Below the pieces are notes generated by a model. The model was given only the letters and a program-made list of their open reading frames with translations. It ran no database searches and was not told where the DNA came from. A program made the translations under genes and the position numbers. This document shows positions 11,175 through 57,780 of a stretch of DNA of 64,000 bases, in pieces. Within the stretch, counting starts at the first letter, position 1, and the number at the start of each line of letters is the position of its first letter. Origin of the DNA: Parcubacteria group bacterium (GTDB lineage Bacteria; Patescibacteriota; Minisyncoccia; 2-02-FULL-40-12; IGHO2-01-FULL-4-A); contig JBDRCU010000037.1 of NCBI GenBank assembly GCA_043821485.1, forward strand, positions 28,746-92,745. Reading direction: 5' to 3'.

Positions 11175-11219
11175 GCAAAATAAAACGCAAAACGGGCTGG
11201 TCCCCATGGACCGGCCCGT
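11175..11219 (-). terminator. Rho-independent terminator for the minus-strand gene at 11273..11671
   Basis: A GC-rich imperfect hairpin, ACGGGCTGGTCC-CCAT-GGACCGGCCCGT, is followed on the minus strand by a T-rich tract (TTTTGCGTTTTATTTTG). Confidence 0.6.
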
Positions 11220-11272
11220 CGCAAGAACATTTGAAAGTATATTATTACCTCCTACTGAATCCAGTACTACTT

Positions 11273-11671
11273 CTATGGAGGCAGGATATCCAATAAAACA
11301 TCCTGAGCCAAGGGGCCTGATACTCTGACAGCATGACCAGTCCTGATCGGCTGACCTTCGGGAGATTTCACCATATCGTATGGCGAGATTTTCATCTGGA
11401 CTCGACAGGTCTCGTCTCCCAGAAGGATCTCCACGCAAATAGCGCCCTTCGATTCCCTGACTTCAAGGGTAAGGTTGCGCTCCCCGGACCCAAAGCCTGC
11501 ACTATGAAGCTCTAGGCCCTGACCCACGATTCGCACAGGAACCACGACTCTGGAGCACCCCTTAATGATACCTGTGACGGACTCTTTTCTCTCTCCTCCT
11601 CCCCCGTCGAAAGTACGTACTTCCGGCTCCTTGGGCCCTTTTGTGATGACGCTCTTCCTTGCTTCAGTCAT
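11273..11671 (-). CDS. Hypothetical protein (132 aa) in GC-rich island A, with a possible small beta-barrel/OB-like fold
   Basis: The ATG is at 11671 (MTEARKSV...), 6 nt downstream of a GGAGG Shine-Dalgarno site, and the gene has its own terminator. GC content is far above background. The longer in-frame upstream extension would overlap trpS and lacks a Shine-Dalgarno site. Confidence 0.55.
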   Translation of the reverse strand: MTEARKSVITKGPKEPEVRTFDGGGGERKESVTGIIKGCSRVVVPVRIVGQGLELHSAGFGSGERNLTLEVRESKGAICVEILLGDETCRVQMKISPYDMVKSPEGQPIRTGHAVRVSGPLAQDVLLDILPP

Positions 11672-11758
11672 GGCTTTCCCTCCACATCTCTGATATACAG
11701 AGCATACTACATAGTTACAATTCTCGGATATATCGTCAATATCTGCTATAATCAAAAT

Positions 11759-12736: not shown

Positions 12737-12887
12737 ACATAATACCAGACAACATATACATATTCTGTCAAGGTTTACTGTTTATACAAAGTATGGTTAA
12801 ATAAAGATAGAATCATATATTCATAAAAATGAGACAGAAAACTGTCTTATTTGTAGTACCTTAACAGTGAGTTTGTTTCAGTTTGTT

Positions 12888-12933
12888 GGATGGGATTCAT
12901 AGTTCGCATGTGTGTGGATTATGAATCCCATCC
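12888..12933. repeat. Perfect 13-bp inverted repeat (GGATGGGATTCAT ... ATGAATCCCATCC) with a 20-nt spacer
   Basis: Read directly from the sequence. The repeat lies about 70 nt upstream of the lipoprotein gene in island B. Confidence 0.6.
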
Positions 12934-13001
12934 GACGCAATTCTGTAGCGGATGAAGAAGGGACTCGGCCATTGCGGCTAGAGCCCAGAAGGAGACAGAC
13001 G

Positions 13002-13496
13002 ATGAAGTACAAGCTTCTCGTATCCGTGTTCGCGCTCCTGGCGGCTTCGCTACTGATGGCTGGGTGCGGTGGCAGTGGACCGACTAACTCCCTGGTCCAG
13101 CAGACCGTGCAGTCGGTCAGGATCGTAATGCCTGTTGACAGGGCGACGAGCCAAGAATCTCCGCCCGGACTGAGGAGCAACGGCTACACAAGCTTCTTGG
13201 TGGAAACAAAGGGTCATACCAACAGCCCGACTCTTCAGGCTTTCTTCGAGGAATGGTCTGCTATCGAAGGGGAGCCTCTATCTCTGACAGCGCACTTCAA
13301 AGACCTCGAGATACAGAACAACACACCTTCCCCCTCCGCGAACTGGAAGGTTATACCCCCGCAAGATTGGCCCAAAGCGACGCTCACCCGGCTATACATC
13401 TCGGTTCAACCTAAAGATCCCCGGACTGGCGATGGAGTAGGCGGAGATTACATCTGGGTCTATATCAACGGGCTCCCCACTGATCCGGCTGGCTAA
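13002..13496 (+). CDS. Putative lipoprotein (164 aa) in GC-rich island B
   Basis: The product starts MKYKLLVSVFALLAASLLMAGC, a signal peptide with an LMAGC lipobox. The RBS context is AAGGAGACAGACGATG. GC content is high. Confidence 0.65.
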   Translation: MKYKLLVSVFALLAASLLMAGCGGSGPTNSLVQQTVQSVRIVMPVDRATSQESPPGLRSNGYTSFLVETKGHTNSPTLQAFFEEWSAIEGEPLSLTAHFKDLEIQNNTPSPSANWKVIPPQDWPKATLTRLYISVQPKDPRTGDGVGGDYIWVYINGLPTDPAG

Positions 13497-13521
13497 CAAA
13501 ACCGAAACAAACTCCGAACCG

Positions 13522-13568
13522 ACGGACCGTCACCATCCTATCCTATATGGTGGCAACGGTCCGTTTTT
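13522..13568 (+). terminator. Rho-independent terminator after the island-B lipoprotein
   Basis: The hairpin ACGGACCGTCACCAT...ATGGTG..ACGGTCCGT is followed by TTTTT. Confidence 0.65.
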
Positions 13569-13633
13569 AAATACAAGAATCCATCAACAAGCTAAGCATA
13601 GAACTATCTGCTAAAAGATATATAATAAAGATA

Positions 13634-20195: not shown

Positions 20196-20225
20196 AAGGA
20201 AAGAACAATAATAGGATACTGATTT

Positions 20226-20477
20226 CTACCTTCTTTCTACCGGCTCCACGGATTTCACCGTCCGCGACAAGAAGGACTTTTTCCTGTTGTCGATTTCGAC
20301 CTGCAGACTTTCTGAATTTGTCATACGGGGATTCAGTTCGTCAGGCACTTCGATCGCGACCAGTTCGCGTGAACTGAACGGACTTTCTTCGCCCTCTGTA
20401 ATCGGCCTACATCCTACCTTCCTGAGTTCTTCAGGAAAATCACTAGGAGCAATCGGATGCAACGTAACCCTATACAT
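20226..20477 (-). CDS. Small hypothetical protein (83 aa) in GC-rich island C
   Basis: The ATG follows a GAGGAGGGGATCAGA Shine-Dalgarno context. The product starts MYRVTLHPIAPSDFPEELRK. A hairpin lies downstream. Confidence 0.45.
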   Translation of the reverse strand: MYRVTLHPIAPSDFPEELRKVGCRPITEGEESPFSSRELVAIEVPDELNPRMTNSESLQVEIDNRKKSFLSRTVKSVEPVERR

Positions 20478-20551
20478 TCTGATCCCCTCCTCTCAACTCT
20501 TTGATAACGGATCCCTCAGAAAAGAAACTATCCTATTATCTCAAACGTCCT

Positions 20552-20586
20552 CCAAAAACGCAAGAAGCCCCGGGGGAGGGCTTCTT
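20552..20586 (-). terminator. Rho-independent terminator between the two island-C genes
   Basis: On the minus strand the hairpin AAGAAGCCC-loop-GGGCTTCTT is followed by GCGTTTTT. Confidence 0.55.
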
Positions 20587-20619
20587 GGCCTTCCTCCTCC
20601 GGAGCTACTGGAACTGGAC

Positions 20620-20886
20620 TCAGATCTTCGTGGAAGTCCTGAGCTTTGGGGGAATCTTGTCTAATCCCTTCTTGGGAACCGAGTACAAAGGTGGTACCTT
20701 CTTACAACCCTTAATTCGTATCACGGGTTTCAGTCCTGCGAACGCTCCTCTCGGCTCTGCTTCTCCTCTTGCTTTCCCCAAAGCAATTGCTGAAGCCTCG
20801 GCAGAAGAAAAACCCTCCTGACGAACCTTGCGATTTTCCCCTCCTATGGAGAGGGTAACTTCAAAAATCCCCGAGGAATGACTCAT
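20620..20886 (-). CDS. Small hypothetical protein (88 aa) in GC-rich island C
   Basis: The start is taken at the second ATG (MSHSSGIFEVTLSIGG...), which follows a GGGAGGA Shine-Dalgarno site with 8-nt spacing. The product is a small, possibly alpha/beta protein with a Lys/Pro-rich C-terminal tail. Confidence 0.45.
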   Translation of the reverse strand: MSHSSGIFEVTLSIGGENRKVRQEGFSSAEASAIALGKARGEAEPRGAFAGLKPVIRIKGCKKVPPLYSVPKKGLDKIPPKLRTSTKI

Positions 20887-20958
20887 GATGCCTGATCCTC
20901 CCATTCGGTAGATATCTCAATTATTCCATAAAAAAAAGATCCCGTCTTTCCACAGGTG

Positions 20959-23057: not shown

Positions 23058-23220
23058 ATTTAAATTATACCTTAAAAACCTGATAAAAAGGAGCTAATAT
23101 TAGACCATGCTTGTGCTGTCTTGACAATGTATATTAGAAGTGATATATATAGATTATCGTGAACAACGTATTAATCTCCTTCTAACTCCTGGCTCGTCTG
23201 AGCTGGGGAAAGGAACAGAG

Positions 23221-23346
23221 ATGCATCGTAACAAGGATCGGGGCCTACGAGCCCCCAAGAATAAGAGGACATTGAACCACAGTTTCAACCACATCGGCAC
23301 CGCCAACATCGCCACCGACGCCAGCGCCGGCCACCTGTCCGGCTGA
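23221..23346 (+). CDS. Candidate micro-ORF (41 aa) in GC-rich island D
   Basis: ATG preceded by AAAGGAACAGAG. The peptide is MHRNKDRGLRAPKNKRTLNHSFNHIGTANIATDASAGHLSG. A second 11-codon ORF, MHPRPQIRGPP, starts at about 23,388 with an AGAAGGAGACGACG-ATG context. Coding status is uncertain. Confidence 0.3.
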   Translation: MHRNKDRGLRAPKNKRTLNHSFNHIGTANIATDASAGHLSG

Positions 23347-23432
23347 GACAGCAGCCGCGCACGGCAGAAGGAGACGACGATGCACCCGCGACCGCAGATC
23401 AGGGGTCCCCCGTAGGATCCCACGTTCTCCCC

Positions 23433-23467
23433 GGGGCCGCCCCAGAAAGGCGGCCCTTTCACTTTTA
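23433..23467 (+). terminator. Rho-independent terminator (GGGGCCGCC-CCAGAAA-GGCGGCCC then TTTCACTTTT)
   Basis: The hairpin and T tract were read directly. The element is oriented for the plus strand at the end of island D. Confidence 0.55.
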
Positions 23468-24442
23468 GATAACCTCCACTTCCACCAACGGCCATTCACT
23501 AGTTTCGTCTTTCTTCAATATCCCGTCTTTAGCGCCAAACTTTGATACAACAGAAGAAGCGTTTGCAACAGCAAACTGTATAGCTTTAGTAATATCTTCA
23601 CTTCTCATATATTCTGCAACAAAACCAGAAGCAAAGGCGTCCCCTGCCCCTGTACGTTCTTCTATGGGTGAATCCGGAATCCCTGCTTTGTATTTTTTGC
23701 CTTCTTTATCTATAACAAGCACGCCCTCTATTCCTCCACTGACTGATACAATCCCTCCAACTATCTCATGTAGCTTGGATGCAATACCATCCCAGTCTTC
23801 TCTTTTTATTCCTGTTAATTGAGATCCTTCTTCCCTATTGCATGTAAATATATCCATATCGCCTGCAACTTTGAGTAATGCATCCGGACCATCCTTGAAC
23901 ATACTTCCTGTTGTATTGATTGCTAATTTAATTCCCTTGCTTTTCGCATGCTCAACAAGCTTATACATAACATCCCAATTATTCCCTACTGAACCCAGAT
24001 ACAACCACTTAGCATCTATCTTATCCAAATCAATTTTATTAACATCAAAATGCTGTGCCTCTCCTTTATAATTAAGGATCGTTCTACTTCCAGATGAATG
24101 CACCAGAATCACTGAATACGATGTTATATTATCATCATGCTTTTGTATTAAACTCGTATCAACTCCTTCATTCTCTAATACCTCGATAATCTCTTTACCG
24201 TCCTTATCCGCACCTATTATACAAATACTTGCAACATTGTGTCCTTGCCTTGCAAAAGTCACTGCTGAATTTGTTCCTCCTCCGCCAGTCGAGAATACAA
24301 TCTTATCTATATCAATCTTTGAACCAAGCGGGAAACACTCTATCTCCCCTGTTGGAGAATCTTCGCTTTTTGCAATAATAAAGCTATCATCTTCCATGAA
24401 AACATCTTTTGTTGCTGATCCTATTGTTATTACGTCAAACAT
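23465..24442 (-). CDS. PfkB-family carbohydrate kinase (ribokinase-like)
   Basis: The N-terminus is MFDVITIGSATKDVF. The GG motif STGGGGTNSA and the anion-hole motif GAGDAFASGF are present. Confidence 0.85.
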   Translation of the reverse strand: MFDVITIGSATKDVFMEDDSFIIAKSEDSPTGEIECFPLGSKIDIDKIVFSTGGGGTNSAVTFARQGHNVASICIIGADKDGKEIIEVLENEGVDTSLIQKHDDNITSYSVILVHSSGSRTILNYKGEAQHFDVNKIDLDKIDAKWLYLGSVGNNWDVMYKLVEHAKSKGIKLAINTTGSMFKDGPDALLKVAGDMDIFTCNREEGSQLTGIKREDWDGIASKLHEIVGGIVSVSGGIEGVLVIDKEGKKYKAGIPDSPIEERTGAGDAFASGFVAEYMRSEDITKAIQFAVANASSVVSKFGAKDGILKKDETSEWPLVEVEVI

Positions 24443-29488: not shown

Positions 29489-29568
29489 TCAAAACGAAAA
29501 CGCCGCTCGACAGTGCGAGTTTTGTTTTCGCACTACCTTACGACGTGTCGTGGTACATGTTTTTCCTC

Positions 29569-30108
29569 CTATCCCTGGAAGGTTTCAGTTGCCGCGCCAT
29601 TGGCATTGGGCCAGCGGCGCTTGAAAAGTATCGGAACGAGGATCCTGACGGGGACCTTATGTAAGGCACCCTCCAGCCACAGGATTACCTTGAGTCCTGG
29701 GAAGAAGTGATTCAGACGCTCACAGCAAGTCTGACACAAGTTGGCGACATGGATATCTCCAGTCTGCTTCTTTCTGTGAACTGTCACCAACGTTACCGGT
29801 TTCCCGTTCCTCTTAGCAGCACAGTGCATGAGCCCCACTTCGGCACAGCTCGAGGACTGACCTATGGGAGTATCGAGTTGGAGACCATCGAACTCATTGC
29901 CCTGGCTGTCGACGCTAAGCGCGTACAGCTGGTGAAAGCCATGCTGGTAATATCCCTCCAGTGCAGCCTTGGCCCGTTCGACAAGTCTCTCATCTTCCCT
30001 GGTCATCGGCTCTTCAAACTTCAGAATCATCTGGACGTGTGCACTGTGGCATATCGTTTCCAGCTTTTGCCACTCTTCTTGGTCTGGTTTGTCGGGTTTC
30101 TCGCCCAT
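29569..30108 (-). CDS. Cytidine/deoxycytidylate deaminase-fold protein (tetrameric CDA / blasticidin-S deaminase-like) in GC-rich island E
   Basis: Zinc ligand motifs SCAEV (CxE) and CQTCC (CxxC) are present. Their spacing, and the flanking pattern AKAAL..Y..GFHQLYAL...G......TP, match the homotetrameric cytidine deaminase pattern. The ATG at 30108 follows an AAGGGAG Shine-Dalgarno site. Confidence 0.7.
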   Translation of the reverse strand: MGEKPDKPDQEEWQKLETICHSAHVQMILKFEEPMTREDERLVERAKAALEGYYQHGFHQLYALSVDSQGNEFDGLQLDTPIGQSSSCAEVGLMHCAAKRNGKPVTLVTVHRKKQTGDIHVANLCQTCCERLNHFFPGLKVILWLEGALHKVPVRILVPILFKRRWPNANGAATETFQG

Positions 30109-30188
30109 CGGGTTCTCCCTTCTTCTAAATCCTGAGTTCCACGACAATAACAGACTATGATTTAAATGTCAAATCTACTTAATTCTAT

Positions 30189-31606: not shown

Positions 31607-32605
31607 ATGAAATATCCGCAAAGAGTACAGTTTCCAAAAGGGAAACAAAAAGAATTCCTATTTAATATAAAGAGAGTTCTCAAATGGGATACAAATGAGA
31701 TTGCGAATTTAGTAGGATTATCTACTCGTACTATACGTGACTGGCAAAGAGAAAAACTACTCATGTCATTACCAGCATTTAATAAGCTACTGAATGAATC
31801 TGGTATCCCTAAACCCAAAGGAATCAAAATCAGAGATCCATTTTGGTATACACAAGATGGAGGCATGAGAGGATATATAGCTTTAATAAAAAAGTACGGT
31901 CATTTCCCCAAAAATGAGAAAAAGCGAAAAGAGAAGTGGTATGAATGGTGGAATACCAAAGGCAAATACAGTCATCCACTTACAGTCTCCTCCCCCATCT
32001 CCCGACCTAGAAAATCTAAGGATCTAGCTGAGATGACCGGTATACTCCTAGGTGATGGTGGTATAACAAAAAACCAAGTTATTGTCACTTTAAATTGCAG
32101 AGATGACAAAGAATACTCAGAATACGTATATACACTAATGCAGAAATTATTTGGGGTGACTCCAAGTGTATATAGGCAGGAAGAAGCTTCTGTTAATAAG
32201 ATAGCGATATCCCGCGTCCAACTTGTAAAATACTGTGTAGAAAACTTGGGATTGGTTATCGGTGATAAAATAAGACAGCAAATAGATATACCCAAATGGG
32301 TTAAAGCTAATCAGAAATACAGCATCGCATGTCTTAGAGGCCTAGTAGATACAGACGGTTCTATATTCCTGGAATGTCATAAAATAAAAGGAAAGAAGTA
32401 TTGTTATCAACGCTTGAATTTCACTAGTCTTTCTGAGCCATTGCGGAAATCAGTTTTTAAGATATATACAAAATTAGGATTAACTCCAAAATTAAGAAAC
32501 AACAGATCCGTACAGATTGAAAAAAAGGAAGAAATAGCGTACTATTTCCGTACAGTAGACACAAGTAATCCTAAACATCGTAGACGCTTTGGAGGAGTCG
32601 GATAG
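31607..32605 (+). CDS. Free-standing HTH + double-motif LAGLIDADG endonuclease-like protein
   Basis: The N-terminal HTH is EIANLVGLSTRTIRDWQ. LAGLIDADG motif 1 is LAEMTGILLGDGGI. LAGLIDADG motif 2 is LRGLVDTDGSI. The 3' end overlaps tRNA-Ser by 15 nt. Confidence 0.75.
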   Translation: MKYPQRVQFPKGKQKEFLFNIKRVLKWDTNEIANLVGLSTRTIRDWQREKLLMSLPAFNKLLNESGIPKPKGIKIRDPFWYTQDGGMRGYIALIKKYGHFPKNEKKRKEKWYEWWNTKGKYSHPLTVSSPISRPRKSKDLAEMTGILLGDGGITKNQVIVTLNCRDDKEYSEYVYTLMQKLFGVTPSVYRQEEASVNKIAISRVQLVKYCVENLGLVIGDKIRQQIDIPKWVKANQKYSIACLRGLVDTDGSIFLECHKIKGKKYCYQRLNFTSLSEPLRKSVFKIYTKLGLTPKLRNNRSVQIEKKEEIAYYFRTVDTSNPKHRRRFGGVG

Positions 32606-32674
32606 TGGTTTATTCCAGCTGATTTGAAATCAGCCGGCCGCAAGGCCTCGTGGGTTCGAATCCCACCTCCTCCG
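32591..32674 (+). tRNA. tRNA-Ser (anticodon TGA), type II
   Basis: The acceptor is GGAGGAG/CTCCTCC. The anticodon stem GCTGA/TCAGC carries a TTTGAAA loop. The variable arm is GGCCGCAAGGCC and the T-arm is GTGGGTTCGAATCCCAC. No CCA is encoded. Confidence 0.8.
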
Positions 32675-32758
32675 CATGTTGATCTGTACCCCATAAAGTG
32701 GACACGGGGTATGGTCTATATGTTTTCTTTTGTTAACATTAATCATTAACAAAAGAAT

Positions 32759-33196
32759 ATGAGAACAATATATTCAAGCGAGGAAATCGCCAAGTTAAAA
32801 CAAAATCCATGTGTATTTAATTGCACAGAAAGGTTGATCAATTACACCTACGAGTTCAAGAAGCGCGCATTAAAATTGCATGCACAAGGAGTAAGTGCGA
32901 GGGAGATATGGAAGCGATCGGGCTTCGATGTCGATAAATGGAAAAAGCATTACTTCAAAGGAACTCTCCGTGATTGGAAGAAGATCGTAGAGAAAAATGG
33001 GGTCGAAGGGTTATTAAAACCTGATGGTATACAATTCGACAGAGGACCGAACAAGACTGACAAAGACAAATTAAAACGTCTGGAACTTCAGGTTAGATAT
33101 CTTGAAGCAGAAAACGATTTTTTAGCCAAACTCCGGGCCAAAAGAGCGGAGTCAAACTCAGGCCGTGTGAGAAATACAGAATCATCAAAGAATTAA
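32759..33196 (+). CDS. IS3-family transposase OrfA (HTH / leucine-zipper)
   Basis: The 145-aa product has a C-terminal heptad Leu repeat LKRLELQVRYLEAENDFLAKL. Confidence 0.85.
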   Translation: MRTIYSSEEIAKLKQNPCVFNCTERLINYTYEFKKRALKLHAQGVSAREIWKRSGFDVDKWKKHYFKGTLRDWKKIVEKNGVEGLLKPDGIQFDRGPNKTDKDKLKRLELQVRYLEAENDFLAKLRAKRAESNSGRVRNTESSKN

Positions 33197-34020
33197 ATGA
33201 TGATGCCAGTGTTCTTTGTTCATTAGCATATGTCTCCAGGAGTGGATACTACAAATGGTTACGAACTGCGGATCTGCCGGACAAGGACTATCCTGATTAT
33301 TTAAAAATCAAGAAGGTATTTGACAAAGGTAAGGGCAAATACGGCTGGAGAGCGATTAAAATGAGGATTCCAGCGATGAATCACAAGAAGATACAGCGGA
33401 TCATGAGGAAGTATGAATTGGTTGCCAAAGTGAGGAAAAGAAACCCATACAAGGCAATCATGAAAGAACGACTAGAACACAGGATATTCCCCAACAAACT
33501 CCAGAGAGAGTTTAATCAGACAATACCTCGCACCGTATTTTGCACCGACATCACCTATCTGCCGTTTAATCAACGGTTTGCCTACCTCTCAGTGGTAAAG
33601 GATGTTGCGACCGGTGAGGTGGTGGCATGGAGTGTGTCATCCGGTCTTGAGATGACACTGGTAACAGAAACAATCGAACAAATGGAGCCATGTGAAAATG
33701 CGCTGATCCATTCCGACCAAGGGTTCCACTACACCAATCCGTTGTTCATTGAGAACGTAAAGGAGCTCAGAATGAACCAATCAATGTCTGGTAAAGGAAA
33801 CTGCATAGACAATGCACCGATTGAATCCTTTTTTGGCCACATGAAAGACGAGCTGGATTACAAATCCTGCACATCTTTAGAAGAATTGCGTTTGAGAATT
33901 GAAGAATATATGAGATACTACAATTACGAAAGAAAGCAGTGGACAAGGAACAAGATGGCTCCGATTGAGTACAGAGATCATCTTTTGGCTCAATCAGAGG
34001 GGCAGGTGGTGTGTTCCTAA
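33118..34020 (+). CDS. IS3-family transposase OrfB (DDE integrase core), expressed by -1 frameshift from orfA
   Basis: The -1 frame is open from about 33,106. A candidate slippery heptamer T_TTT_TTA lies at 33,118-33,124. The product carries the rve-domain motifs HSDQGFHYT and MSGKGNCIDNAPIESFF. The first in-frame ATG is at 33,361. Confidence 0.78.
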   Translation, partial: FFSQTPGQKSGVKLRPCEKYRIIKELNDDASVLCSLAYVSRSGYYKWLRTADLPDKDYPDYLKIKKVFDKGKGKYGWRAIKMRIPAMNHKKIQRIMRKYELVAKVRKRNPYKAIMKERLEHRIFPNKLQREFNQTIPRTVFCTDITYLPFNQRFAYLSVVKDVATGEVVAWSVSSGLEMTLVTETIEQMEPCENALIHSDQGFHYTNPLFIENVKELRMNQSMSGKGNCIDNAPIESFFGHMKDELDYKSCTSLEELRLRIEEYMRYYNYERKQWTRNKMAPIEYRDHLLAQSEGQVVCS

Positions 34021-43670: not shown

Positions 43671-43746
43671 AAGCAATTATAATCAAAACCGCCGCAAGGC
43701 GGTTTTGATATTGCATAAAATGACAAAAGTGAGTAGGGTAATATGT

Positions 43747-44439
43747 ATGAAAATAGACATCATAACAATCTTCCCAAATCTATTTGATAACTTCTTAAAC
43801 GAAAGCCTAATTGCGCGTGCTCAAAAGAAAAAACTTGTGCGTATAACTGCACACGATTTGCGCAAATGGACCAAGGATAATCACAAAACTGTAGATGGCA
43901 AACCATATGGCGGGGGAGCTGGAATGGTTCTTATGGTTAATCCAATAATGAAAGCTGTAAACAAACTTAAAAGCAAAAAGAAAAAGATACGAGTCATATC
44001 AATGTCTGCTAAGGGCAAAACTTTCAATCAAGCGATGGCACGCAAATGGTCTAAATTTGATCAATTAATTTTCATATGCGGACGATATGAAGGCATAGAT
44101 GAAAGGGTTAATAAATATGTTGCTGATGAAGAAATTTCAATAGGCAACTATGTTTTGTTTGGAGGAGAAATTCCAGCAATGGTAATAACTGAAGCAGTGA
44201 CACGTTTAATTCCTGGATCCATTGGCAAACAAGAATCTCTAAAAGATGAATCTTTCAATGTCACTGGAACAGTTCAAAAACAGCTATCTGAATTCCTAGA
44301 ATACCCTCATTACACCCGACCAGAGACAATAGAAATCAATGGCAAAAAACGCCACGTCCCAAAAGTACTGCTTTCCGGCAATCACAAAGAAGTAGAGAAA
44401 TGGCGCAAAAAACAGTCAAAAATTGCCAAAAAAATTTAA
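43747..44439 (+). CDS. trmD: tRNA (guanine37-N1)-methyltransferase TrmD
   Basis: The N-terminus is MKIDIITIFPNLF. The SPOUT-fold motif GRYEGIDERV is present. Confidence 0.88.
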   Translation: MKIDIITIFPNLFDNFLNESLIARAQKKKLVRITAHDLRKWTKDNHKTVDGKPYGGGAGMVLMVNPIMKAVNKLKSKKKKIRVISMSAKGKTFNQAMARKWSKFDQLIFICGRYEGIDERVNKYVADEEISIGNYVLFGGEIPAMVITEAVTRLIPGSIGKQESLKDESFNVTGTVQKQLSEFLEYPHYTRPETIEINGKKRHVPKVLLSGNHKEVEKWRKKQSKIAKKI

Positions 44440-44689
44440 TTCCTATAGACTTTATAATATGAAAAAAGAACTTCAAAATCTCATTGAAAAATCAGAACTG
44501 AATGATGAAGATAAAAAAATCTGGTTTTCTGTAATTCAATCGCTTAATGACAAAATGACTGTTAAGTTTCATGAGGTTATTTTGACAAATCCAGACAATC
44601 TTCCTCAAATAACATCCCTTATTAAAGAATTCCAAGAAGCTATAGGAAACAAAGATTTAGCTAAAATAGATAAATTATTAGAAAAATGA
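44423..44689 (+). CDS. Hypothetical protein
   Basis: The only support is a short ORF in operon context. The ORF is 267 nt (88 codons), or 76 aa if it starts at the alternative ATG at 44459. Confidence 0.4.
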   Translation: MPKKFNSYRLYNMKKELQNLIEKSELNDEDKKIWFSVIQSLNDKMTVKFHEVILTNPDNLPQITSLIKEFQEAIGNKDLAKIDKLLEK

Positions 44690-45573
44690 GAAGAGAAGAA
44701 GCCTTCCAACCAAATAAATCAGAGACTAAAAAGACTTTCAAAGAAAGTCTGTCTCTTCGTACGAAAGAGCTTAAACACAGAAGTAATAGAGTACTGATTG
44801 CACTTACTGCAGCGTTACTACTTTCTGGTTTTGCAGGTGTAGCTGAAGCAGGAATGAAAGATTTCTTCAAAGGAAAAGGTAGGGAAATACTTAATACCGG
44901 CAGAAGGGTGGGCATAGATAGGACCAAGAAAGAATTCAAGTATCAATTAGATAAAAAAATACTAGAACGCAGATTAAAAGAAAAGGACAAAGAATTTACC
45001 AGACTGATGAGAGAGCTTATAAAATATGACGAGAAGATACTGATGCAAGGACTAAGTGCCCTACAAGAAGAACTGTCTCAAGACCTAGATCCTAAATTTG
45101 ACGATGTATTAACTTCACTTGAACAGCAACGGGCTTTTGCTACAAAAATTATCCAGCTTGATTTAGAAATTGCAGATATGGAACAGGGAGTAAAAACAGA
45201 GGAAGAAACAGGTGGTTCAATAGAAGAAAAAAGACGCGAACGCGATATACTCCTTAAAGCATATGAAAAATCTCTTGTAGAAATGAATACGGAATTAGAA
45301 CAAGCCTTACAAAATGAAGAAAAGAATCCTCTTAAAGAACTTCTGGAAGAACAGGGATGTGGGATAGATACGCTTCATACAACAAGAGATGGAATGACAT
45401 CTGTAGAATTTTATGCAACAGTCGAACCTATGCGCGAACATGCACAAGGAGCTAGAGCAGAGATTCAAGAACTCGAAGGACAAATGGATCAACAAGGAAA
45501 AGCAATAAGAGAGGAGCATAAGGAAGCAGGAAGTGGAGCACTAGATAGAACCCTAGATATTATATTTAGATAA
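44686..45573 (+). CDS. Hypothetical coiled-coil protein with a signal-anchor
   Basis: The 295-aa product has a TM at about residue 35-55. The rest is charged heptad-like sequence. Confidence 0.45.
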   Translation: MRREEAFQPNKSETKKTFKESLSLRTKELKHRSNRVLIALTAALLLSGFAGVAEAGMKDFFKGKGREILNTGRRVGIDRTKKEFKYQLDKKILERRLKEKDKEFTRLMRELIKYDEKILMQGLSALQEELSQDLDPKFDDVLTSLEQQRAFATKIIQLDLEIADMEQGVKTEEETGGSIEEKRRERDILLKAYEKSLVEMNTELEQALQNEEKNPLKELLEEQGCGIDTLHTTRDGMTSVEFYATVEPMREHAQGARAEIQELEGQMDQQGKAIREEHKEAGSGALDRTLDIIFR

Positions 45574-45593
45574 AATATAGAAATTTGTCGATA

Positions 45594-45623
45594 TAAAAAC
45601 CCTTAGAACAAGGGTTTTTTGTT
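45594..45623 (+). terminator. Rho-independent terminator (AAAACCCTT-AGAAC-AAGGGTTTTTTG)
   Basis: A perfect hairpin with a T tract, read directly. Confidence 0.7.
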
Positions 45624-45625
45624 TC

Positions 45626-45654
45626 TTGACTTTGACCCTAAAATACTATATAAT
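45626..45654 (+). promoter_or_regulatory. Consensus sigma70-type promoter TTGACT-17nt-TATAAT for the island-F gene
   Basis: TTGACT lies at 45626-45631 and TATAAT at 45649-45654, separated by a 17-nt spacer. The element is about 70 nt upstream of the ATG. Confidence 0.6.
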
Positions 45655-45724
45655 ATATACAACTCTGCGAGGTCCGTAAGGAATTTCATAGAACGTACAT
45701 TCCGAAAACGAGAGGAGAAAGGTC

Positions 45725-46387
45725 ATGCGTTACGCGGGCCTATTCCTGTTGGTGGTCGCCATCATGGCGACCCTCACAATCAACTCCGAACCCGCCTTCG
45801 CCGGAGACCTGTTCGACAGGATCCTTAGCGAGGGCTTGGCTGGCACCGATCGAGACCACGTCGTCACGACTGCCCGCCAGACGATCCGCGAGGACAGCGA
45901 CATCCGTGACCCCGGAACAACTGGAAGCATCTACGAAGGGGTCGACATCACAAACAAGGTACTTGGAAATCCTTACGGTGGCGGGGGAACCAAGGGAACG
46001 CTAACCCGCCTAGGTGGAGCTGGACTGTTCTACTTCCTGGACAGTACGGGTCGCATTCGACATCCGAGTCATACACGTCAATCGGCGGATGTCGTCAAGC
46101 AGATCGAAGCCAAACCCGATACCGTGACCCGACCGACACCGGACCCAAGCATGGAGTGGTCTCTCAACAACGTGACGACCGACAAAACCATGGTCGTCTA
46201 CTACCAGAACGAGATGCTCTTCGTGCTCAACGGCGGAGAGTCGAACTTCCATGCGATTCCTCTGAGCTGGAACTCCACCCGCTTCAGGGCGGAGATCCTG
46301 GAACAGGATCCATCGACTGGCGCCCTTGTTCGCAGTGCTGCGACCAGAACGGCCACCGGAAGCTACGGCTTCAACTTCTCCGACTAG
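45725..46387 (+). CDS. Hypothetical secreted protein (220 aa) in GC-rich island F
   Basis: A signal peptide MRYAGLFLLVVAIMATLTINSEPAFAG is present. The RBS context is GAGGAGAAAGGTC. GC content is high. Confidence 0.6.
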   Translation: MRYAGLFLLVVAIMATLTINSEPAFAGDLFDRILSEGLAGTDRDHVVTTARQTIREDSDIRDPGTTGSIYEGVDITNKVLGNPYGGGGTKGTLTRLGGAGLFYFLDSTGRIRHPSHTRQSADVVKQIEAKPDTVTRPTPDPSMEWSLNNVTTDKTMVVYYQNEMLFVLNGGESNFHAIPLSWNSTRFRAEILEQDPSTGALVRSAATRTATGSYGFNFSD

Positions 46388-46438
46388 CCGGCCATGAGAC
46401 CGGCAACAAGTACCGACATCAGGGCCGGACCTCCAACA

Positions 46439-46462
46439 GGGGGCACCGGCCCCCTTTTTTTT
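46439..46462 (+). terminator. Strong rho-independent terminator (GGGGGC-ACCG-GCCCCC then T8)
   Basis: Read directly. It sits immediately before the rRNA promoter region. Confidence 0.7.
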
Positions 46463-46694
46463 ATAAAACCCTTGACTTACCTAGGTCATTCTAATACACT
46501 GTATGGGTACTATGAATTAACACAAAACATACATCTTCATAGCATTTATGAAGGCTCGGGATTGTCCCTCAATGGGATGGTCCCGAGTCTTTAATGACAG
46601 AACATTAACAACTTTACAGCCAACGATACGTATATTCGTATCGTTAACTAGATCAATGAAAGATAGTTTGAGTAAATCTCAACTATTCTTATAA

Positions 46695-46734
<40 letters not shown>

Positions 46735-48113
46735 GATAAGGCATGCAAGTCGAACGGGCAATCTTCGGATTGTCAGTGGCGAACGAGTTAGTAACGCCTT
46801 GGTACCTACCCTATACTCAAGAATAACTCCGAGAAATCGGAGCTAATACTTGATAGTCTCGAAAGAGTAAAGATTTATCGGTATAGGAGGGGCCTAGGTC
46901 CTATCAGCTTGTTGGTGAGGTAACGGCTCACCAAGGCTATGACGGGTAGGGGATGTGAGAGCATGATCCCCAACGAGGGAACTGAGAACGGTCCTTACAC
47001 CTACGGGTGGCCGCAGTCGAGAATATTGGACAATGCGCGAAAGCGTGATCCAGCGACGCCGCGTGCAGGAAGAAGGCCTTCGGGTTGTAAACTGCTTTTA
47101 TGTGGGAAGAATTTTGACGGTACCACAAGAATAAGGGGCTGCTAACTTCGTGCCAGCAGCAGCGGTAATACGAAGGCCCCAAGCGTTATCCGGAATTATT
47201 GGGCGTAAAGGGCAGGTAGCCGGTTGGTATAGTCTGATGTTAAATCTCATGGCTCAACTATGAGACCGCATCAGAAACGTATCAGCTAGAGCAAGTCAGA
47301 GGCATACGGAACGTGCGGTGTAGGGGTGAAATCCGTTGATATCGCACGGAACACCAAAAGCGAAGGCAGTATGCTGGGGCTTTGCTGACGGTCAACTGCG
47401 AAAGCGTGGGGATAGAAAAGGATTAGATACCCTTGTATTCCACGCCCTAAACGATCCAGACTAGCTATCGGGAGCATCGACCCTCCCGGTGGCGAAGCTA
47501 ACGCGTTAAGTCTGGCGCCTGGGAAGTACGATCGCAAGATTAAAACTCAAAGGAATAGGCGGGGATTCGCACAAGCGGTGGATCGCGTGGTTTAATTCGA
47601 TACAAAGCGAAGAACCTCACCAAGGTTAGACATCATAGTGAAAGCCTTCTGAAAAGTTGGCCCCTTTTATAGCACTATGACAGGTGGTGCACGGCTGTCG
47701 TCAGCTCGTCGAGTGATCGGTTCTCTTAAGTGAGGAAACGAGCGCAACCCCTGTCGTCTGTTACAAGTGTCAGACGATACTGCCTGGGATAACCAGGAGG
47801 AAGGAGGGGATGACGTCAAGTCAGCGTGTCCTTTGATACCTTGGGCTACACACGCGATACAATGGGTGTTAACAATGGGTTGCCAAACCGCGAGGTGGAG
47901 CTAATCCCATCAAATGCGCCCTCAGTTCGGATAGGAGGCTGAAACTTGCCTCCTTGAAGTTGGAATCGCTAGTAATCGCAGATCAGAATGCTGCGGTGAA
48001 TACGTTCTCGAATCTTGCACTCACTGCCCGTCACATCAGGGAAGCCGGAAATACCCAAAGCACCATAAATTCTAATGGTACTACGGTAGGTTCGGTAACA
48101 AGGATGAAGTCGT

Positions 48114-49017
48114 AGAGATTAAGAAATAAAATTTGCGACCTGTCAAGAGTAATCTGGCAGAAAAACCCGACTAATATCGGTGAAACCTAAATCTTAAAAT
48201 GTTATAATTAAGATATGGTAATACCGAGGAAAGCTAGGAGAATCACATATTCAACTGAAATAAGAGAGCTAAAAAAGAGACTAAAACTAGATGAGTCACA
48301 AAAGGCTATAGTGATAGGCAGTATATTGGGCGATGCAACATTAGAGCTCAATTGGTCAAAAACCAACTGCCGAATGAGAATTGATCATTCTATAAAACAA
48401 GAGGATTACGTACGACTAAAGTATACAATCCTCAAGGACTGGGTACTTACTGAACCTAAATACTACAAGCCTCATAGGTCCATATGGTTCCGAACAATAA
48501 GTCATCCCAACCTTACTGAACTATGGAAAATATTCTACAAGAACAAGAAAAAAATTATACCAGAAAATATAGCTGAACTAATCCAAAACCCCCTTACTGT
48601 TGCAACATGGTTTATGGATGATGGTAATGTACGAAGACGAAATTCACGTATAATTTCCTACGACCTCAATACTCAATCGTTCACATACGCAGAAAATGAA
48701 AAACTTCTGAACGCCTTGAAAACGGTCTATGGAATATCTTGCAGTCTACATAAAAATCATAACAGACATAGAATATATATCGGTACCAATGAAAAAAATA
48801 AATTCCAAAAGATAATACGTAAATTATCAACACCATCTCTTAAATACAAACTTCAGTGAATATGTGATTCTCTTGGCCCCGTAGAGACTTCTCGTACTCT
48901 GGCCCCATAGCAGAACGAGGGATAGCTGTACGTAGACAGCTATAATACGTCGGCCCCAGTTATTAAAAACTGGGTGAAGATATAGTCCATGCTCGTGGAA
49001 ACACGGGAATAAACATG
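48114..49017 (+). other. Intervening sequence (probable group I intron) in the 16S rRNA at an E. coli ~1506-equivalent site
   Basis: Exon 1 ends ...GAAGTCGT and exon 2 starts AACAAGGCACGG, which restores the universal GAAGTCGTAACAAGG. A U precedes the 5' splice site and the intron ends in G. The boundaries are approximate, within a few nt. Confidence 0.6.
48215..48859 (+). CDS. Intron-encoded double-motif LAGLIDADG homing endonuclease
   Basis: Motif 1 is IVIGSILGDATLE. Motif 2 is TVATWFMDDGNV. The ORF lies wholly inside the 16S insertion. Confidence 0.85.
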   Translation: MVIPRKARRITYSTEIRELKKRLKLDESQKAIVIGSILGDATLELNWSKTNCRMRIDHSIKQEDYVRLKYTILKDWVLTEPKYYKPHRSIWFRTISHPNLTELWKIFYKNKKKIIPENIAELIQNPLTVATWFMDDGNVRRRNSRIISYDLNTQSFTYAENEKLLNALKTVYGISCSLHKNHNRHRIYIGTNEKNKFQKIIRKLSTPSLKYKLQ

Positions 49018-49261
49018 AACAAGGCACGGCTAGGAGAACCTGGTCGTGGATCACCTCCTTTCTATACAAAAACTCCTGCTTTATGCAGGTGCTGTATAGA
49101 AACATTAGGTGTCGATATAGGTTGTGCGAGGTTTGTTCGTCGATAGACAAGCACCTCGTACAAACTAAGGCTGGCTGATACAGCCCAATCTATCAGCGTT
49201 TGATGCTACCGAAAAGCACACTATCTAGTTAATGATACAAATAGACGTATAAACTCTAAAC

Positions 49262-56699: not shown

Positions 56700-56772
56700 G
56701 GGCGTGTAGCTCAGCGGTAGTAGCGCGTCACTGATAATGACGAGGCCGCAGGTTCGATCCCTGCCACGCCCA
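56700..56772 (+). tRNA. tRNA-Ile (anticodon GAT)
   Basis: The acceptor is GGGCGTG/CACGCCC. The anticodon stem CGTCA/TGACG carries a CTGATAA loop. The T-arm is GCAGGTTCGATCCCTGC. Confidence 0.85.
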
Positions 56773-56841
56773 CCGCGAAAACAACAATCTTTATTGATTG
56801 TTGTTTTTGTTTATTTAACGTCATGCTATACTAAAATAACT

Positions 56842-57639
56842 ATGCTTAAAAAAACCACAAGACCAAAACCAAGTACAAAAGAAATGCGTGAAGGAAAATT
56901 TAATCTACCTGCTTCCAAACTTCAGCTCATAGAAGAAGACGCTCCAACAAGAGATTTTCGCTCTTCATTTCACTGGAGAGTATTTCGTATAATGGCTGAA
57001 TTTGTTGATGGCTGGCAATTCCTTGCAGATTTTAAACGATCCGTAACATTCTTTGGTTCAGCACGATTTAAACCCGAAAGTCCATGGTACCAGCAAGCTC
57101 GTGAACTCGCTAGCAAGTTAGCTGACGATGGTTTTGATGTCATTACAGGCGGAGGCCCGGGTATCATGGAAGCTGCAAACCAAGGAGCGCATGAGTCTCA
57201 CACTAATTCTCTTGGATTAATTGAAGACGACAGAAGAGGAGATTCAAGGGGCGATTCAATAGGATTAAACATCAGATTGCCATTCGAACAACGTATTAAT
57301 AAATATGTTGAGAAAGCAGTTGCCTTCCATTATTTCTTTGTACGAAAAGTAATGCTTACATATTATGCACAAGCCTACATCTATTTCCCCGGAGGATTTG
57401 GAACTCTGGACGAAGCATTTGAAGTTATAACCTTGGTACAAACAAAAAAGATACCTCGCATACCTATCGTATTTGTTGGCAAAGGCTACTGGGGGAAACT
57501 GGATGACTTTATGAAAAATACAGTATATGGCGAATACAAAGCAATAGACAAGGGAGATATGGACATTTATACCATTGTTGACACAGTTGAAGATGCCTAC
57601 AAGATTATAAAAAAATCCCCGCCAAGAAAGGTTTTCTGA
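56842..57639 (+). CDS. LOG-family protein (cytokinin riboside 5'-monophosphate phosphoribohydrolase-like; TIGR00730)
   Basis: The motifs VTFFGSAR and GGGPGIMEAANQGA are present. The start is taken at the ATG at 56842 to avoid overlap with tRNA-Ile. Confidence 0.8.
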   Translation: MLKKTTRPKPSTKEMREGKFNLPASKLQLIEEDAPTRDFRSSFHWRVFRIMAEFVDGWQFLADFKRSVTFFGSARFKPESPWYQQARELASKLADDGFDVITGGGPGIMEAANQGAHESHTNSLGLIEDDRRGDSRGDSIGLNIRLPFEQRINKYVEKAVAFHYFFVRKVMLTYYAQAYIYFPGGFGTLDEAFEVITLVQTKKIPRIPIVFVGKGYWGKLDDFMKNTVYGEYKAIDKGDMDIYTIVDTVEDAYKIIKKSPPRKVF

Positions 57640-57705
57640 TATCAAAAGCTTCCCCAAAAACTCAAAATGTGTTATAACATAAGACGCCCATAAAACATCT
57701 TATTA

Positions 57706-57778
57706 GGGCCCGTAGCTCAGTTGGTAGAGCGCCTCACTTGCACTGAGGAGGCCGGGGGTTCGAATCCTCTCGGGTCCA
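57706..57778 (+). tRNA. tRNA-Ala (anticodon TGC), with the G3:U70 identity pair
   Basis: The acceptor is GGGCCCG/CGGGTCC. The anticodon stem CCTCA/TGAGG carries a CTTGCAC loop. A TTCGAAT T-loop is present. Confidence 0.85.
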
Positions 57779-57780
57779 CG

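Follow-up and report, generated by a model that had tools for sequence, protein, structure and literature searches.

The window analysed here, i.e. the whole stretch of 64,000 nucleotides with a GC content of 39.7%, comes from a metagenome-assembled genome (MAG) of the Parcubacteria group, which is AT-rich and Yanofskybacteria-like. Between its trmD gene (43705-44439; Pfam tRNA_m1G_MT, 5.6e-55) and its 16S rRNA gene (Rfam match from 46689) lie two small open reading frames (ORFs) of host-like composition, encoding 88 aa and 295 aa, followed by a GC-rich segment on the forward strand, termed here island F (45660-46456, 57.9% GC). The GC-rich stretch sets in approximately at a predicted transcription start (45660) and finishes with the stem of a terminator (46456). 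Island F harbors a single long ORF for a predicted secreted protein and, together with its own promoter, probably represents a horizontally acquired, self-contained monocistronic unit of ~800-860 bp, located in the gap between the last gene of the spacer and the native 16S promoter.

On its left side the unit is bounded by an intrinsic terminator (45595-45625) that belongs to the upstream gene for the 295-aa protein (stop codon at 45573) and is found, like all elements of the unit, on the forward strand. The terminator scan reveals a hairpin with a 10-bp stem and a 5-nt loop (AAAAACCCTT-AGAAC-AAGGGTTTTT, 45595-45619) followed by a T-run, with a fold energy of -10.4 kcal/mol (z = -3.05). Immediately downstream there is a sigma-70-type promoter, TTGACT - 17 nt - TATAAT (45626-45654), which matches the consensus at 11 of 12 positions, is AT-rich, and carries the -35 motif CTTGACTT common to the 16S promoters of the clade. 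Sites with a match of at least 11/12 occur six times on both strands of the window, versus 3.1 expected from shuffles, so chance would rarely put one in a 150-nt gap in the correct orientation (~0.004), where it also has the right distance from an SD-ATG (Shine-Dalgarno site and start codon). The end of the -10 box is separated from the ATG codon by 70 nt, and the 5' untranslated leader of ~64 nt (45661-45724), predicted from its position relative to the -10 box, exhibits no unusual structure (fold z = 0.12). We rejected a riboswitch or another non-coding RNA as an explanation of the leader or of the island, as all matches of both to Rfam covariance models were far below the gathering scores and the leader fold is ordinary. 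The leader includes a Shine-Dalgarno (SD) site, GAGGAGAAAGG (45711-45721), with GAGGAG placed 7 nt before the ATG at 45725; AGAAAGG within the SD region can pair with CCUUUCU of the 16S 3' tail as well. The anti-SD is retained in the 16S gene of this genome (GGATCACCTCCTT at 49048, the 3' end being GGATCACCTCCTTTCT at 49048-49063). The ORF itself (45725-46387, 220 codons and a stop codon; NCBI hypothetical protein ABH833_02490 of Parcubacteria group bacterium, on a 126-kb contig) is followed by the downstream terminator, (A)GGGGGC-ACCG-GCCCCC(T) + T8 (46438-46462, also from the terminator scan), an intrinsic terminator built of a stem of 6-7 bp, a tetraloop and the T8 run; six of the base pairs are G-C, and A46438-T46455 may add a seventh. 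The fold energy of the terminator is -14.6 kcal/mol (z = -2.5), or -33.4 kcal/mol (z = -3.75) together with the preceding hairpin. The right border is the native 16S promoter, TTGACT - 17 nt - TACACT (46472-46500), which lies outside the unit and begins 10 nt past the terminator. The first-pass annotation, made by a model from the sequence alone, had listed the upstream terminator, promoter, leader, SD site, signal-peptide ORF and downstream terminator as one unit directly before the rRNA promoter, and we find both this anatomy and this location in place.

The ORF at 45725-46387 is the sole long ORF of the island. It is embedded in a stop-free run of 231 codons, while runs of at least 220 codons appear in only 0.64% of island shuffles, and its GC content at the three codon positions is 0.56/0.48/0.71 (chi-square p = 6e-6). 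The ATG located 7 nt past GAGGAG is the first start codon in frame, and it is unique. The length, the periodicity, the SD-ATG arrangement, the signal peptide described below and the bracketing promoter and terminator together make it improbable that this ORF is not a gene.

The N-terminus of the encoded precursor is predicted to be a signal peptide of the Sec/signal peptidase I (SPase I) type, MRYAGLFLLVVAIMATLTINSEPAFA (45725-45802), with Arg2 in the n-region, an h-region comprising residues 3-19, and A-F-A at positions -3 to -1 of the c-region. The 15-residue Kyte-Doolittle mean is highest at residues 5-19 (2.6), and all 15-residue windows that begin after residue 9 stay at or below 1.2; residues 3-19 are the only hydrophobic segment, followed by NSEPAFA/GD (predicted cleavage at the slash), and there is no further transmembrane segment. 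The sequence thus combines a basic n-region, an N-terminal h-region and AXA in a polar c-region, as expected for Sec/SPase I substrates. Other export classes were considered as well. An SPase II lipoprotein is ruled out because the protein has no cysteine for the lipobox +1 position, a type IV pilin-like class III signal is ruled out by Gly5 followed by LFLLV with no Glu at +5, and direct reading of the sequence reveals no twin-arginine (RR) motif. The predicted mature protein (45803-46384; 194 aa, 21.2 kDa, pI 5.4) is devoid of Cys, rich in Thr, Gly and Asp, and has a Lys/(Lys+Arg) ratio of 0.25. We found in it none of the anchoring motifs looked for (LPXTG, lipobox, SLH, LysM, C-terminal transmembrane segment). 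Judging from its N-terminus, the product of island F is probably a secreted protein.

Analysis of composition reveals that island F is a compositionally foreign insertion of ~800 bp. The GC content of its ORF is 58.4%, compared to 39.0 ± 2.6% for host ORFs (n = 54), and GC at the third codon position (GC3) is 0.71, compared to 0.319 ± 0.054 for the same set, both with z ~7. The encoded protein is Arg-rich where host proteins are Lys-rich, its Lys/(Lys+Arg) ratio standing against 0.625 in the host. The dinucleotide distance delta* of island F from the host is 204, whereas 660-nt chunks of host sequence have a mean of 99 and a 95th percentile of 150. The first-pass annotation noticed the GC island without drawing the conclusion of foreign origin. 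It also regarded the unit as unusually well insulated for a native gene; the insulation is confirmed, but the gene is not native, as indicated by its composition, its SD-led start and its absence from the closest relatives, and the unit looks unusual in this respect because it is not native.

The order of genes from trmD to 16S is conserved in relatives, whose loci (numbered with the prefix L) were retrieved through TrmD. The closest among the proteins scored are those of L001, L038 and L039 (TrmD 70-72% identical), while the best TrmD match among the scored proteins of a collection of 5.8 billion is 73% identical. As the closest available genomes show only 70-73% TrmD identity, the window represents a lineage without a sequenced close relative, and with ~72% identity to the nearest relatives the time of insertion is poorly bounded. 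Island F is absent from L001, L038 and L039, where the last spacer ORF is followed by 16S within ~300 nt: this ORF ends ~10-20 nt before a GGGCTTGACTT-N16-TATAAT promoter, which is followed by a conserved leader and, ~250-300 nt past the promoter, by the 16S gene. The alignment identifies the window orthologue of this promoter at 46472 (TTGACT-17-TACACT, then ATGAATTAAC..CTCGGGATTGTCC..), i.e. downstream of the island. Since the promoter of the relatives is orthologous to the one at 46472, island F and its own promoter amount to ~800-860 bp of extra DNA, which according to this alignment is placed between the terminator of the upstream gene and the native 16S promoter. The concern that the promoter elements might belong to the rRNA operon only, raised in the first-pass annotation, is not borne out: the 16S gene has its own conserved promoter and leader from 46472, with a terminator in between.

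The protein encoded by island F is a strict orphan. In a word-indexed search of 5.8 billion proteins and in an exhaustive phmmer search against 1.84 billion cluster representatives it matched only itself. No match was found in JGI metagenome contigs and IMG/VR, in tblastn searches against phages and plasmids, or in tblastn searches against the loci L001-L030 of the relatives, and an exact-sequence contig look-up was negative. Searches of Pfam, NCBIfam, PHROGs and PADLOC, including those with the mature protein and its halves, returned no families at E <= 1 or E <= 10, and the best match in the PDB has a non-significant E-value of 0.6. There is also no similarity to the exported protein of another GC-rich island of the window, island B (E = 0.17). 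AlphaFold2 predictions carried out without an alignment gave no confident fold, either for the precursor or for the mature protein (predicted local distance difference test (pLDDT) scores of 35.3 and 33.6, respectively). Thus, the homologue search and the structure prediction proposed in the first-pass annotation came back empty-handed, while its remark that the mature protein has no recognizable motif is upheld and strengthened by the orphan status.

GC-rich single genes at the same site in other genomes provide a precedent. In three more distant relatives, L009 (10745-11512), L010 (10915-11568) and L021 (10868-11593), the trmD-16S spacer contains a GC-rich NUDIX-like single gene (57-60% GC, GC3 0.71-0.82), in all cases on the minus strand, i.e. 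opposite to island F. The members from L010 and L021 reach Pfam NUDIX and that from L009 is NUDIX-like by motif only. All three units possess a GC-hairpin terminator, and those of L009 and L021 additionally have a -10 box, a leader of ~65 nt and an SD site. The related L007 lacks the insertion seen in L021. The NUDIX-like family comprises 21 homologues, of which the three with a taxon name are all from the Candidate Phyla Radiation (CPR; Magasanikbacteria, Liptonbacteria). In a Liptonbacteria contig with 54% GC the gene looks native, whereas its GC3 in AT-rich CPR contigs is either conspicuous (0.74) or has partly ameliorated (0.46). The simplest reading of this pattern is a transfer from GC-rich to AT-rich CPR followed by slow amelioration, in agreement with the reported predominance of within-phylum events among individual gene transfers in Patescibacteria (PMC12455944). 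Island F fits the pattern of the NUDIX-like units in site, architecture and composition, with a different gene, and by this analogy its donor was probably another CPR lineage.

Taken together with these three spacer genes, the GC-rich single genes that flank trmD in related CPR (the others are L007 9067-9879, L021 8971-9894, L002 9182-9907 and L005 8718-9299) have 53-60% GC, are mostly NUDIX-like, with one cupin, and possess their own terminator; those with a clear start also have a leader and SD site. L007 and L021 have in common a NUDIX-like gene upstream of trmD, with 74% nucleotide identity compared to 93.5% for 16S. It has kept its high GC content in both genomes, so islands of this type can last for a long time.

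Analysis of translation starts in the window reveals a difference between host genes and islands. An SD-like site precedes only ~4 of 46 host genes, while 15 of the 46 have a -10-like box whose end lies 3-14 nt upstream of the start codon (background 7.8%); in seven of these 15 it is a perfect TATAAT, placed 6-7 nt from the ATG in six cases and 10 nt in one. Examples of starts with a TATAAT-like box are those at 1619, 11759, 13634, 23057 (-), 31512 (-), 48215 and 50608. This suggests that leaderless mRNAs are widespread in this Parcubacteria genome, although its 16S keeps the anti-SD. In addition to island F, the window contains five further GC-rich islands (A-E), all in gaps between housekeeping genes, and a canonical SD site with proper spacing is present in all four clear ORFs of the islands (A: GGAGGG, 11671, -; B: AAGGAG, 13002, +; E: GGGAG, 30108, -; F: GAGGAG). 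Foreign genes are recognizable here not only by GC content but also by a leader and SD site, which native genes mostly lack. This contrast may matter more than the gene of island F itself: it could provide a homology-free marker for gene transfer in the clade, and it raises the question of how SD-led foreign genes get translated. Our literature search returned general studies of horizontal gene transfer (HGT) in Patescibacteria and none on GC-rich SD-bearing units or on leaderless expression in Parcubacteria.

If island F functions as its elements suggest, RNA polymerase would initiate at the near-consensus sigma-70 promoter (45626-45654), the ~64-nt leader would offer a canonical SD site to the ribosome, and the 26-residue signal peptide would direct the 220-aa precursor to the Sec translocon, with SPase I cutting after AFA26. 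The resulting acidic, Cys-free protein of 21 kDa would be released outside the cell and, in a monoderm-type CPR bacterium, would be wall-associated or free. The hairpin-T8 terminator would halt the transcript 10 nt before the -35 box of the 16S promoter, so that the rRNA operon would be insulated from read-through. Transcription, translation, export and the role of the protein are all predictions from the DNA. The suggestion of the first-pass annotation that the gene is strongly expressed is not supported: despite a strong promoter and a strong SD site, the codons used fit the host badly, and the GC3 of 0.71 against 0.32 argues against efficient translation.

As to the class of protein, the likeliest is a lineage-specific factor, extracellular or on the surface, through which the bacterium interacts with a host cell or the environment. 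CPR bacteria (Patescibacteria) are believed to live on other cells, an association for which secreted and surface proteins, mostly uncharacterized, are the main candidate mediators. A gene that appears to have been acquired, is equipped for expression and has been retained beside the rRNA operon under streamlining is a reasonable candidate for a host-interaction factor, and its retention in an ultra-small, symbiont-type genome suggests selection. As it has no relatives, it also offers a clean test case for the origin and function of orphan genes. A bolder proposal, which we consider unlikely, is that the protein is the founding member of a family of secreted effectors or adhesins, which this episymbiont-type bacterium would use on its host, and that the unit exemplifies circulating, expression-ready CPR units, each equipped with promoter, leader, SD site and terminator. 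According to it, GC-rich single-gene units would land preferentially in spacers near rRNA and other housekeeping genes, and would bypass the largely leaderless, SD-poor expression mode of the recipient.

Several observations weigh against the interpretation of island F as an acquired, functional unit. It is known from a single MAG contig. Its codons are a poor fit to the host, no integrase or transposase gene is found in or next to it, no significant flanking repeats explain the insertion, and no donor is identifiable from homologues in the databases searched. Because there is no homologue, there is no evidence of selection on the ORF from conservation or dN/dS. The low pLDDT is expected for a single sequence, yet it is compatible with a non-functional or disordered product. 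These last points come closest to the alternative that the DNA is foreign but the ORF is non-functional, either a decaying remnant or a chance frame. GC-rich sequence gives long spurious ORFs because it contains few stop codons; shuffles of the island have stop-free runs of 120 codons on average, and its other frames hold ORFs of 112 and 80 aa. Nevertheless, the run of the ORF is exceptional among the shuffles and GC3 periodicity is in frame, and a chance frame would hardly combine an SD-spaced first ATG with a textbook signal peptide between a promoter and a terminator, which makes this alternative quite unlikely.

The remaining alternatives concern the origin of the segment. That the unit is the cargo of a specific mobile element (an integron-type cassette, an element derived from a miniature inverted-repeat transposable element (MITE) or from an insertion sequence (IS), or a site-specific island) rather than a product of illegitimate recombination could be argued from the recurrence of different GC-rich genes at the trmD-16S spacer in several genomes, from the presence of an IS3-type transposase elsewhere in the window, and from short direct repeats at the borders (AAAACCCTT at 45596 and 46465; CTTGACTT at 45624 and 46470). 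The repeats are, however, at chance level (at least 8 nt in 26% and at least 9 nt in 6.7% of random window pairs), and we dismissed both them and the inverted repeats (CAAGGGTTTT/AAAACCCTTG) as signatures of a mobile element on account of this chance frequency. Terminal inverted repeats and attC-like sites are likewise absent from the island. An integron gene cassette was rejected specifically, as the unit has its own promoter, a simple terminator hairpin as its 3' element, a solitary position, and no rve or phage-integrase gene nearby. Moreover, the six islands A-F share no sequence and no common dinucleotide signature, and the signatures give no support to a common donor. Cargo of a specific element is thus improbable. 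An assembly chimera, in which a fragment of ~800 bp from a GC-rich organism was joined into the Parcubacteria contig, would account for the abrupt switch of composition and for the occurrence of the protein on one contig of one MAG only. Both junctions are, however, exactly intergenic, the AT-rich promoter carries the CTTGACTT -35 motif of the clade, five further GC-rich islands lie in gaps of the window, and analogous islands occur at the same spacer in independent MAGs; we therefore regard a chimera as very improbable. An rRNA-operon P1, with the island as a long 16S leader and the ORF as an incidental frame or a leader peptide, is the third possibility. Tandem rRNA promoters are common, and the upstream promoter, with CTTGACTT and a perfect TATAAT, resembles the 16S promoters of the relatives, whereas the proximal -10 box in the window is the weaker TACACT. 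We give this explanation very little credence. A strong terminator (-14.6 kcal/mol and T8) separates the upstream promoter from the 16S gene and, with the boxA-like elements of the leader placed past the proximal promoter, a transcript from the upstream promoter would not be equipped for antitermination. In addition, 16S has just one promoter in the relatives, without an extension of this kind, and the intervening sequence shows coding periodicity.

In the vicinity of the unit, the 295-aa ORF (44686-45573), directly 5' of island F, has a single N-terminal hydrophobic segment followed by a long, charged, coiled-coil-like region. At the corresponding position the relatives have an ORF of ~196 aa with a similar build but no significant sequence similarity, and homology to the 196-aa protein of L001 was dropped as a candidate relationship (E = 0.07). 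No match to the 295-aa protein was found in metagenome contigs; it is an envelope protein that is fast-evolving or has been replaced. Only the 88-aa ORF has a detectable counterpart in L001 (E = 3e-6). On the other side, the 16S gene (46689-49062) has an interruption close to the 3' end: its Rfam alignment ends at 48143 and the canonical tail, ACAAGG...GGATCACCTCCTT, is found at ~49020-49060. The insertion of ~900 nt (~48114-49025) contains an ORF (48215-48859) for a LAGLIDADG_2 homing endonuclease (Pfam, 6.4e-43), and the group I intron model found no match in it. Genes for tRNA-Ile(GAT) and tRNA-Ala(TGC), whose usual place is the 16S-23S spacer, are located in the region 56700-57779, 7.6 kb downstream of 16S and 930 nt apart, with an ORF of the LOG/'lysine decarboxylase' family (56737-57639) between them. 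As the 23S gene is not in the window, the rRNA operon is dispersed.

The other islands are heterogeneous. Island A (11190-11700), between an ABC transporter gene and trpS, contains an ORF of 132 aa (11276-11671, -) with a GGAGGG SD site and a downstream hairpin, and no family match was found for it. Island B (12880-13570) has an ORF of 164 aa (13002-13496, +) with a lipoprotein-type signal (...LLMAGC), an AAGGAG SD site and a terminator hairpin at ~13520-13560, without a significant family match. Islands C (20225-20909, ~50% GC) and D (23100-23600, ~56% GC) contain no convincing long ORF; the former has two short ORFs on the minus strand with a hairpin between them (20587-20561), the latter several GC hairpins. 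A search of Rfam at E <= 10 gave no match for either island, and both could be acquired genes that have decayed or RNAs of unknown kind. Island E (29500-30175) is built like F: its ORF (29572-30108, -) is associated with TTGACA-17-TATTGT at 30172-30144, a GGGAG SD site and a terminator-like hairpin at ~29505-29520, and the product is cytidine-deaminase-like (CAE...CxxC; NCBIfam PRK06848, E = 1e-12, below the curated cut-off). Another foreign element of the window is that of the IS3 type at 32591-34020, which adjoins tRNA-Ser(TGA) and comprises a transposase (rve/rve_2/rve_3; ORF 33361-34020, GC3 0.54, with an SD site) and a preceding ORF of 145 aa.

Individually transferred genes and small genomic islands have been reported in Patescibacteria/CPR (PMC12455944, mSystems 2025). 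Like those cases, island F is a single foreign gene of atypical composition among housekeeping genes of a streamlined CPR genome; unlike them, it has no nameable donor or homologue, while detection in that study relies on homologues, and its foreignness is also manifest in translation signals, i.e. an SD site in an SD-poor host. A close parallel in architecture is offered by the NUDIX-like units from Magasanikbacteria/Parcubacteria MAGs (L009, L010, L021), of which those of L009 and L021 share with island F the AT-rich -10 box, the ~65-nt leader, the SD site and the GC hairpin terminator. The NUDIX-like units occupy the same intergenic site and also consist of one GC-rich ORF (217-255 aa) that contrasts with the host, but they are divergent from the 16S gene and encode a cytoplasmic NUDIX-like product, while the product of island F is of the exported type and has no sequence in common with them. 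As a protein, it resembles classical Sec/SPase I precursors in the basic n-region, the 17-residue hydrophobic core, the helix-breaking Pro and Ala-X-Ala, and differs from them in its mature part, for which neither a known secreted family nor an anchoring motif was found. In its lack of relatives and atypical composition it is similar to the ORFans in atypical islands of Hsiao et al. 2005, as cited in PMC12455944; unlike those islands, island F is a single gene without mobility genes, in an ultra-small genome of symbiont type. Island F is thus not a new kind of system but belongs to a known kind, that of single-gene HGT islands and orphan secreted proteins.

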